This document shows positions 42,545 to 42,671 of a DNA stretch of 64,000 nucleotides, one piece after another. The stretch is from Octopus vulgaris (Eukaryota). The stretch lies in assembly GCA_951406725.2 (NCBI GenBank), contig OX597838.1, positions 28,024,001 through 28,088,000 of the forward strand, in the 5' to 3' direction. The translations under genes and the position numbers were made by a program. The notes beneath the pieces were generated by a model that did not search any database, was not told where the DNA came from, and saw only the letters and a program-made list of their open reading frames with translations. Position 1 is the first letter of the stretch. Each line of letters begins with the position of its first letter.

Positions 42545-42671
42545 ATGTTTTTCCTCTATTTTCTTTTTTAGGTAAGTTTCCTGGTCAATTAAAGTTGATG
42601 CTTTATTAATTTGTTAAATAATTTTTAGGTAAGTTTCTATATTTTTTTTTTATGCCTTCCTAGGTAAGTTT
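42545..42671 (+). promoter_or_regulatory. Cluster of three juxtaposed 3'/5' splice sites (TAG|GTAAGTTT)
   Basis: AG|GT junctions at 42571/2, 42628/9 and 42663/4, each preceded by a T/pyrimidine tract. Confidence 0.55.

Follow-up and report, generated by a model that had tools for sequence, protein, structure and literature searches.

The first intron of the octopus Mondo/ChREBP (MLXIP/MLXIPL-like) orthologue contains what is probably a ratchet point of the Drosophila type (site 1), followed at short distance by two further copies of the same motif (sites 2 and 3), which we read as donors defining a cryptic exon of 57 or 92 nt and not as further ratchet steps. Our searches gave no report of such an element in this lineage. 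The stretch analysed, hereafter the window, comprises 64 kb of a 2.8-Gb genome (G000:C25:28024001-28088000), and all positions given without a contig refer to it. The motif at issue is the 11-mer TAGGTAAGTTT, present on the plus strand at 42569, 42626, and 42661, with no further copy in the window on either strand.

The threefold presence of this identical 11-mer, which had been noted in a preliminary description of the window, is well beyond what composition would predict, with a mean of 0.05 copies in shuffled sequences and three or more copies in 0 of 100 shuffles. The junctions lie at 42571/2, 42628/9, and 42663/4, that is, at spacings of 57 and 35 nt. The same description held that the copies do not form a simple tandem repeat, and indeed TRF finds no array here, while a genome search shows the three-site region to be single-copy apart from a CT microsatellite. 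A tandem repeat or known RNA family can be dismissed, given the lack of a head-to-tail array, 0 Rfam matches over 41000-44500, and a folding z-score of 0.59, with no stable structure in the three-site region. The further claim of a pyrimidine tract before each copy stands for site 1 (19 pyrimidines in the 20 nt before the YAG) and site 3 (17/20), but the tract is weak at the A-rich site 2 (12/20), so the three sites are not equivalent.

The window lies entirely (1..64000) inside Mondo/ChREBP intron 1, which occupies G000:C25:27966571-28135998 on the plus strand and measures 169,428 nt. The host search covered a 200-kb flank on each side of the window, and the gene was named by PDB and homologue searches, with Pfam returning 0 families for three host ORFs. 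Exon 1, whose end lies 57,430 nt upstream of the window, aligns with ChREBP residues 44-71 and 81-97, reaching LAY97, and is 95% identical to a ChREBP-like protein (XP_014786236.1, presumably from Octopus bimaculoides) and 54% identical to an Argonauta hians protein. Exon 2 begins at 111,999 in window coordinates and matches ChREBP 5f74_B (E = 5e-12). The A. hians protein maps in 17 pieces between window coordinates -58058 and 157009, leaving the interval from -57432 to about 112,000 empty, and in two relatives' proteins the sequence LAYSGKIV runs across the exon 1/exon 2 junction with no intervening exon. All 16 of the 10-kb bins in the intron have more T than A on the plus strand, compared with 1 of 7 bins in a neighbouring minus-strand gene. 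Since both the Mondo exons and this skew run on the plus strand, the three motifs lie on the sense strand, which is the orientation of host transcription on which the preliminary description had depended. A minus-strand host is ruled out by the skew together with the mapping of the relatives' proteins, and a coding exon or microexon at the three-site region is ruled out by the stop that would follow at once and by the way exon 1 joins exon 2 directly in the relatives' proteins.

Some other features of this neighbourhood deserve mention. The T>A skew follows the transcribed strand well in this genome, in Mondo intron 1 (16/16 10-kb bins) and in the neighbouring gene (6/7), and could be used to orient unannotated introns. 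The Mondo intron also houses a minisatellite of 23 nt (15370-16320), a (TGT)214 run (23273-23914), and six tandem 339-nt units (25365-27360). Minus-strand neighbour genes are found at about -144,000 to -132,000 (L014-L015) and at 168,000-257,500 (L039-L048) in window coordinates, and from their translated motifs we take them to resemble TYW1 and carboxypeptidase D.

Site 1 (AG|GTAAGT, 42570..42577, plus strand) shows the features of a fly-type ratchet point, namely a strong acceptor directly abutting AG|GTAAGT, TT at -6/-5, and a branch motif within -36 to -21, and it does so on the sense strand of a very long intron and at no annotated exon boundary. Its pyrimidine tract (42548..42569) carries C at -9 and TT at -6/-5 and is among the 42 places in the genome that match TTYYCTTTYNYAGGTAAGT, against 7 for the control. 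Upstream of the tract, a sequence resembling the yTnAy branch-point consensus (42542..42546) places its A at 42545 (-27), inside a 110-nt zone free of AG. Acceptors were scored with a matrix built from 45 class loci with site 1 left out, in which purines are penalised by construction, and site 1 obtained 19.5, within a class range of 9.3-24.5 with a median of about 19. Across 464 kb and both strands only sites 1 and 3 reach a score of at least 8, and site 1 is the highest. By its position, site 1 divides the intron into 100,001 and 69,427 nt.

From the host, the strand, the geometry, the quality of the motifs, and the genome-wide class described below, all of which are direct observations, we infer the splicing steps as follows. 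During transcription, U1 on site 2 or 3, together with U2AF/U2 on the tract and branch point of site 1, would define a short exon. Exon 1 would then be spliced to the AG at 42571, releasing a lariat of 100,001 nt. Exon 1 ends in CAG, and therefore this step would create the junction CAG|GTAAGT, which agrees with the donor consensus throughout (7/7 on a crude score, against 6/7 on the same measure for the TAG|GTAAGT donors at +57 and +92) and would be expected to outcompete the two downstream sites. Splicing of the regenerated donor to exon 2 would remove the remaining 69,427 nt and leave nothing in the mRNA. Should site 2 (42626..42636) or site 3 (42661..42671) be used instead, the predicted cryptic RS-exon of 57 nt (42572..42628), or its 92-nt form, would bring in a stop codon at once, as any RS-exon inclusion reads LAYR*, with the stop directly after exon 1. 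The earlier proposal that each site serves as the donor defining an RS-exon for the one before it is supported for the 57-nt (or 92-nt) exon behind site 1 and not for serial use.

Mondo site 1 belongs to a class that can be counted across the genome. The pattern Y12NYAG|GTAAGT has 154 genome matches, compared with 43 for the reversed pattern and 127 summed over the three other first bases (about 42 each), so that about a quarter of the Y12-type motifs (about 42 of 154) may be put down to chance. TT at -6/-5 is found in 129 of the 154 motifs and in 48 of the 127 controls, an 8-fold excess, whereas motifs without TT at these positions number 25 against about 26 (0.95-fold) and show no excess; site 3, with its TC, belongs to this latter group. 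Among fly ratchet points, TT occupies -6/-5 in 196 of 197 (Duff et al., 10.1101/006163). The octopus genome therefore holds about 110 excess ratchet-like sites, and all of the excess bears the fly TT hallmark. Site 1 itself falls outside the 154-member Y12 set because of an A at -14, but it is included in the stricter TTYYCTTTYNYAG|GTAAGT, with 42 matches against 7 in the control (6-fold).

Class members also resemble each other in their surroundings. We compared 45 loci (the first 20 listed of the 154 and the first 30 listed of the 42, minus 5 duplicates) with the first 30 of the 127 controls, and called a donor where no fewer than 5 of 7 positions agreed with the consensus, which is a crude score. 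A donor 10-150 nt downstream was found at 28/45 loci vs. 6/30 controls (p = 0.0004). The interval of 150-290 nt gave 13/45 and the upstream side 3/45, an upstream count that is biased by T-richness. A perfect AG|GTAAGT 35-86 nt downstream occurs at ten sites vs. 1 reversed control, and Mondo site 1 is the only one of these ten with two such donors. AG|GTAAGT is also simply what a strong donor looks like; it is the presence of two (1/10) that is unusual. Neighbours within 300 kb lie on one strand in 12 of 12 cases (first 100 listed of the 154), with only 2 pairs, both same-strand, among the first 100 controls. Nucleotide skew in the 3-kb flanks agrees with the motif strand at 21/30 motifs and 19/30 controls and does not separate the two; with the prediction fixed beforehand, 10-kb samples taken between paired sites had a skew that agreed with the motif strand at 9/10 clusters and in 18/20 bins. 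The TT rule, the downstream donors, the co-oriented neighbours, and the strand skew are what characterises fly ratchet points that have cryptic exons.

Several co-oriented runs can be named, with spacings of about 37-650 kb that likely mark giant introns. On the plus strand these are G000:C13:4468665-4805401 (5 sites), C21:20201806-20432096 (3 sites), and C9:104955602-105622543 (3 sites), and on the minus strand C13:56677060-57801923 (5 sites). Skew agrees with the motif strand in both C13 runs and disagrees in C9, and a crude ORF score recognised no coding exon in 400 kb around the C21 cluster. Two ratchet-like sites of that cluster, G000:C21:20201818 and 20286282, lie 84 kb apart and are identical over 25 bases or more spanning the junction. 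The flanks of L109 and L111 (G000:C2:56263537 and C2:83430269) are alike, suggesting a repeat or paralogous origin of some members, and identical 22-nt ratchet-like motifs with AG|GTGAGT occur 182 nt apart at G000:C2:70662328 and 70662510. At L051 (G000:C4:128575622-128575688, minus strand) a ratchet-like site is tandemly duplicated, the unit being 57 nt, so that two complete AG|GTAAGT sites with pyrimidine tracts are present; this is a precedent for stacking through duplication, and L056 and L058 are similar.

Such cases bear on the possibility that the Mondo sites have no function at all, the motif having arisen by chance in the T-rich DNA of the intron and been multiplied by old short tandem duplications. 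The spacers had been described as dissimilar, and for the most part they are, but the first spacer, which separates sites 1 and 2, is weakly similar to the 70 nt that precede site 1, a similarity matched by 28 of 1000 shuffles and found in one of five comparisons. Sites 1 and 2 also have a 16-nt match in which bases beyond the consensus are shared, and taken together these two resemblances hint that an old local duplication may have taken place. Duplicated motif pairs elsewhere (L051, L056, L058) and the lack of an RNA junction in contigs of four runs guessed to be RNA would fit as well. However, site 1, in sense orientation within an intron of 169 kb, combines every hallmark of the class with the top score in 464 kb, and its strict pattern exceeds the control 6-fold, so that we regard an inert motif as unlikely. 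A duplication origin of sites 2 and 3 would, moreover, be compatible with a ratchet point followed by donors.

The arrangement was originally read as a serial or tandem ratchet, in which each TAG|GTAAGT is an acceptor and then a regenerated donor, or in which site 3 serves as another ratchet acceptor besides site 1. This has some appeal considering the three identical 11-mers and the two perfect downstream donors, which among ten sites with such a donor only Mondo possesses, and site 3 is preceded by a T-run and further pyrimidines (42642..42661; 17/20), with a score of 11.5 that is inside the class range. However, site 2 scores -11.4 as an acceptor, far from the class range of 9.3-24.5, and is best read as a donor, while site 3 has TC at -6/-5, the state in which the genome shows no excess, no branch motif, and no donor of at least 5/7 within about 200 nt downstream. 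Neither site looks like a competent ratchet acceptor, although site 3 could be a minor one. The pieces of 57 and 35 nt would also be at or below the usual minimal intron size. Clustering of the motif, which the preliminary description had proposed to count genome-wide, is not enriched: close pairs of TYAGGTAAGT number 11 vs. 22 in the control, several of them are tandem duplications (L051, L056, L058), and motif triples, among the first 100 listed of 211, are nearly all simple tandem repeats. Because pairs are not enriched and triples are nearly all simple repeats, stacking is no feature of the class. The three-step serial ratchet is not supported by these results, and we consider any serial use at Mondo very improbable.

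RNA data were viewed as assembled contigs from four runs, out of 24 listed, that we guessed to be RNA. Splice joints at the three sites were absent from these contigs, a form of data in which rare forms are dropped, and the same contigs contained no loose ends at 42572, 42629, or 42664 among the 20 listed of 31. Contig X6-31, which is 249 nt long at a depth of 2.2, runs from 42323 to 42571, and its end coincides exactly with the AG of site 1, with no loose end. The chance of a contig ending at 42571 is 0.3-0.8% over five unique-sequence contigs, and this end, which may be that of the excised first segment, amounts to one weak hint. In X1 and X2, contigs cross site 3 unspliced, and the bin 42576-42639 has no contig cover and carries no weight either way. 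The X1 and X2 contigs, from two studies, share a start base at 42643 within a T10 run; oligo-dT priming, on one strand or the other, may account for this.

The contigs are also relevant to a regulated poison exon, that is, to inclusion of the 57/92-nt exon according to tissue, state, or an alternative intronic promoter, which would lead to a stop, to decay, or to a truncated Mondo. The downstream donors nearly match the regenerated one (6/7 vs. 7/7), every inclusion would produce LAYR*, and in flies inclusion is set by donor competition (Joseph et al., PMC8605326). However, the included 57/92-nt form is absent from the contigs of the four RNA-guess runs and annotated relatives show the direct junction only, which leaves regulated inclusion with only a slim chance. 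A broader proposal would join class-wide octopus recursive splicing to a Mondo tandem ratchet, with twin near-perfect donors and site 3 as a second acceptor, acting as a regulated poison-exon switch on a sugar-sensing transcription factor; this combination seems improbable.

It is very likely that more than 100 sites serve octopus in removing its giant introns by recursive splicing of the fly, zero-nucleotide type, and this would be the first spiralian case, pointing to a bilaterian-wide mechanism. Demonstrated cases of recursive splicing come from flies and from a few sites in mammals, and for other insects and sea urchin the process is predicted from an excess of the motif. Neuronal transcripts are over-represented among the long genes of octopus (PMC7222433), which raises the question of how introns of 100 kb or more are removed in this animal. 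The approximately 110 sites in excess, with the TT rule of flies and donors for cryptic exons, form a ready target list and suggest that the mechanism spans bilaterians. The Mondo site with its two strong competing donors would be a natural test of the donor-competition model of RS-exon inclusion, which Joseph et al. (PMC8605326) set out for flies. The preliminary description knew of no such arrangement in cephalopods, and this is in line with our literature searches, which, with most subscription papers outside reach, gave no report of recursive splicing in molluscs. In PMC8797185, the terms recursive splicing and cephalopod both stand in the reference list.

The closest known systems are the Drosophila ratchet points with cryptic RS-exons in Ubx, kuz, Bx, and luna (Duff et al., 10.1101/006163; Joseph et al., PMC8605326; Pai et al., PMC6110457). 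As in Drosophila, Yn-YAG|GTAAGT stands deep in a very long intron at Mondo, with TT at -6/-5, a branch motif at -36 to -21, which is where fly ratchet branch points lie (10.1101/006163), and a donor about 50 nt downstream. Further likenesses are a ratchet donor stronger than the exon donor, a stop upon inclusion, and several co-oriented sites per locus. Unlike in Drosophila, the host is a mollusc gene, the segments would be 100 and 69 kb as compared with 2.6-63.6 kb in flies (10.1101/006163), and two equal near-perfect donors follow the site. The fly gene names Mondo and Mio had 0 matches in nine supplementary files of Pai et al. (PMC6110457).

Of the genomic surveys, Shepard et al. (PMC2773006) reported an excess of RP-sites in large introns of fly, mosquito, bee, beetle, and sea urchin. 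The 13 species in its Tables 1-2 include no mollusc or other spiralian. Our evidence is of the same type and size as in that survey, with a 4- to >10-fold excess there and 3.6- to 8-fold in octopus, but the survey compared the intron with its complementary strand, whereas motif variants served as our control. In mammals, RS-sites and RS-exons in long neural genes were reportedly described by Sibley in 2015. The octopus element would resemble these mammalian RS-exons in its exon definition by a downstream donor, in donor competition, and in the stop on inclusion. However, PMC8605326 cites no more than about nine intronic sites that are fully suppressed in mammals, and with about 110 or more sites the octopus class is nearer to the fly pattern.
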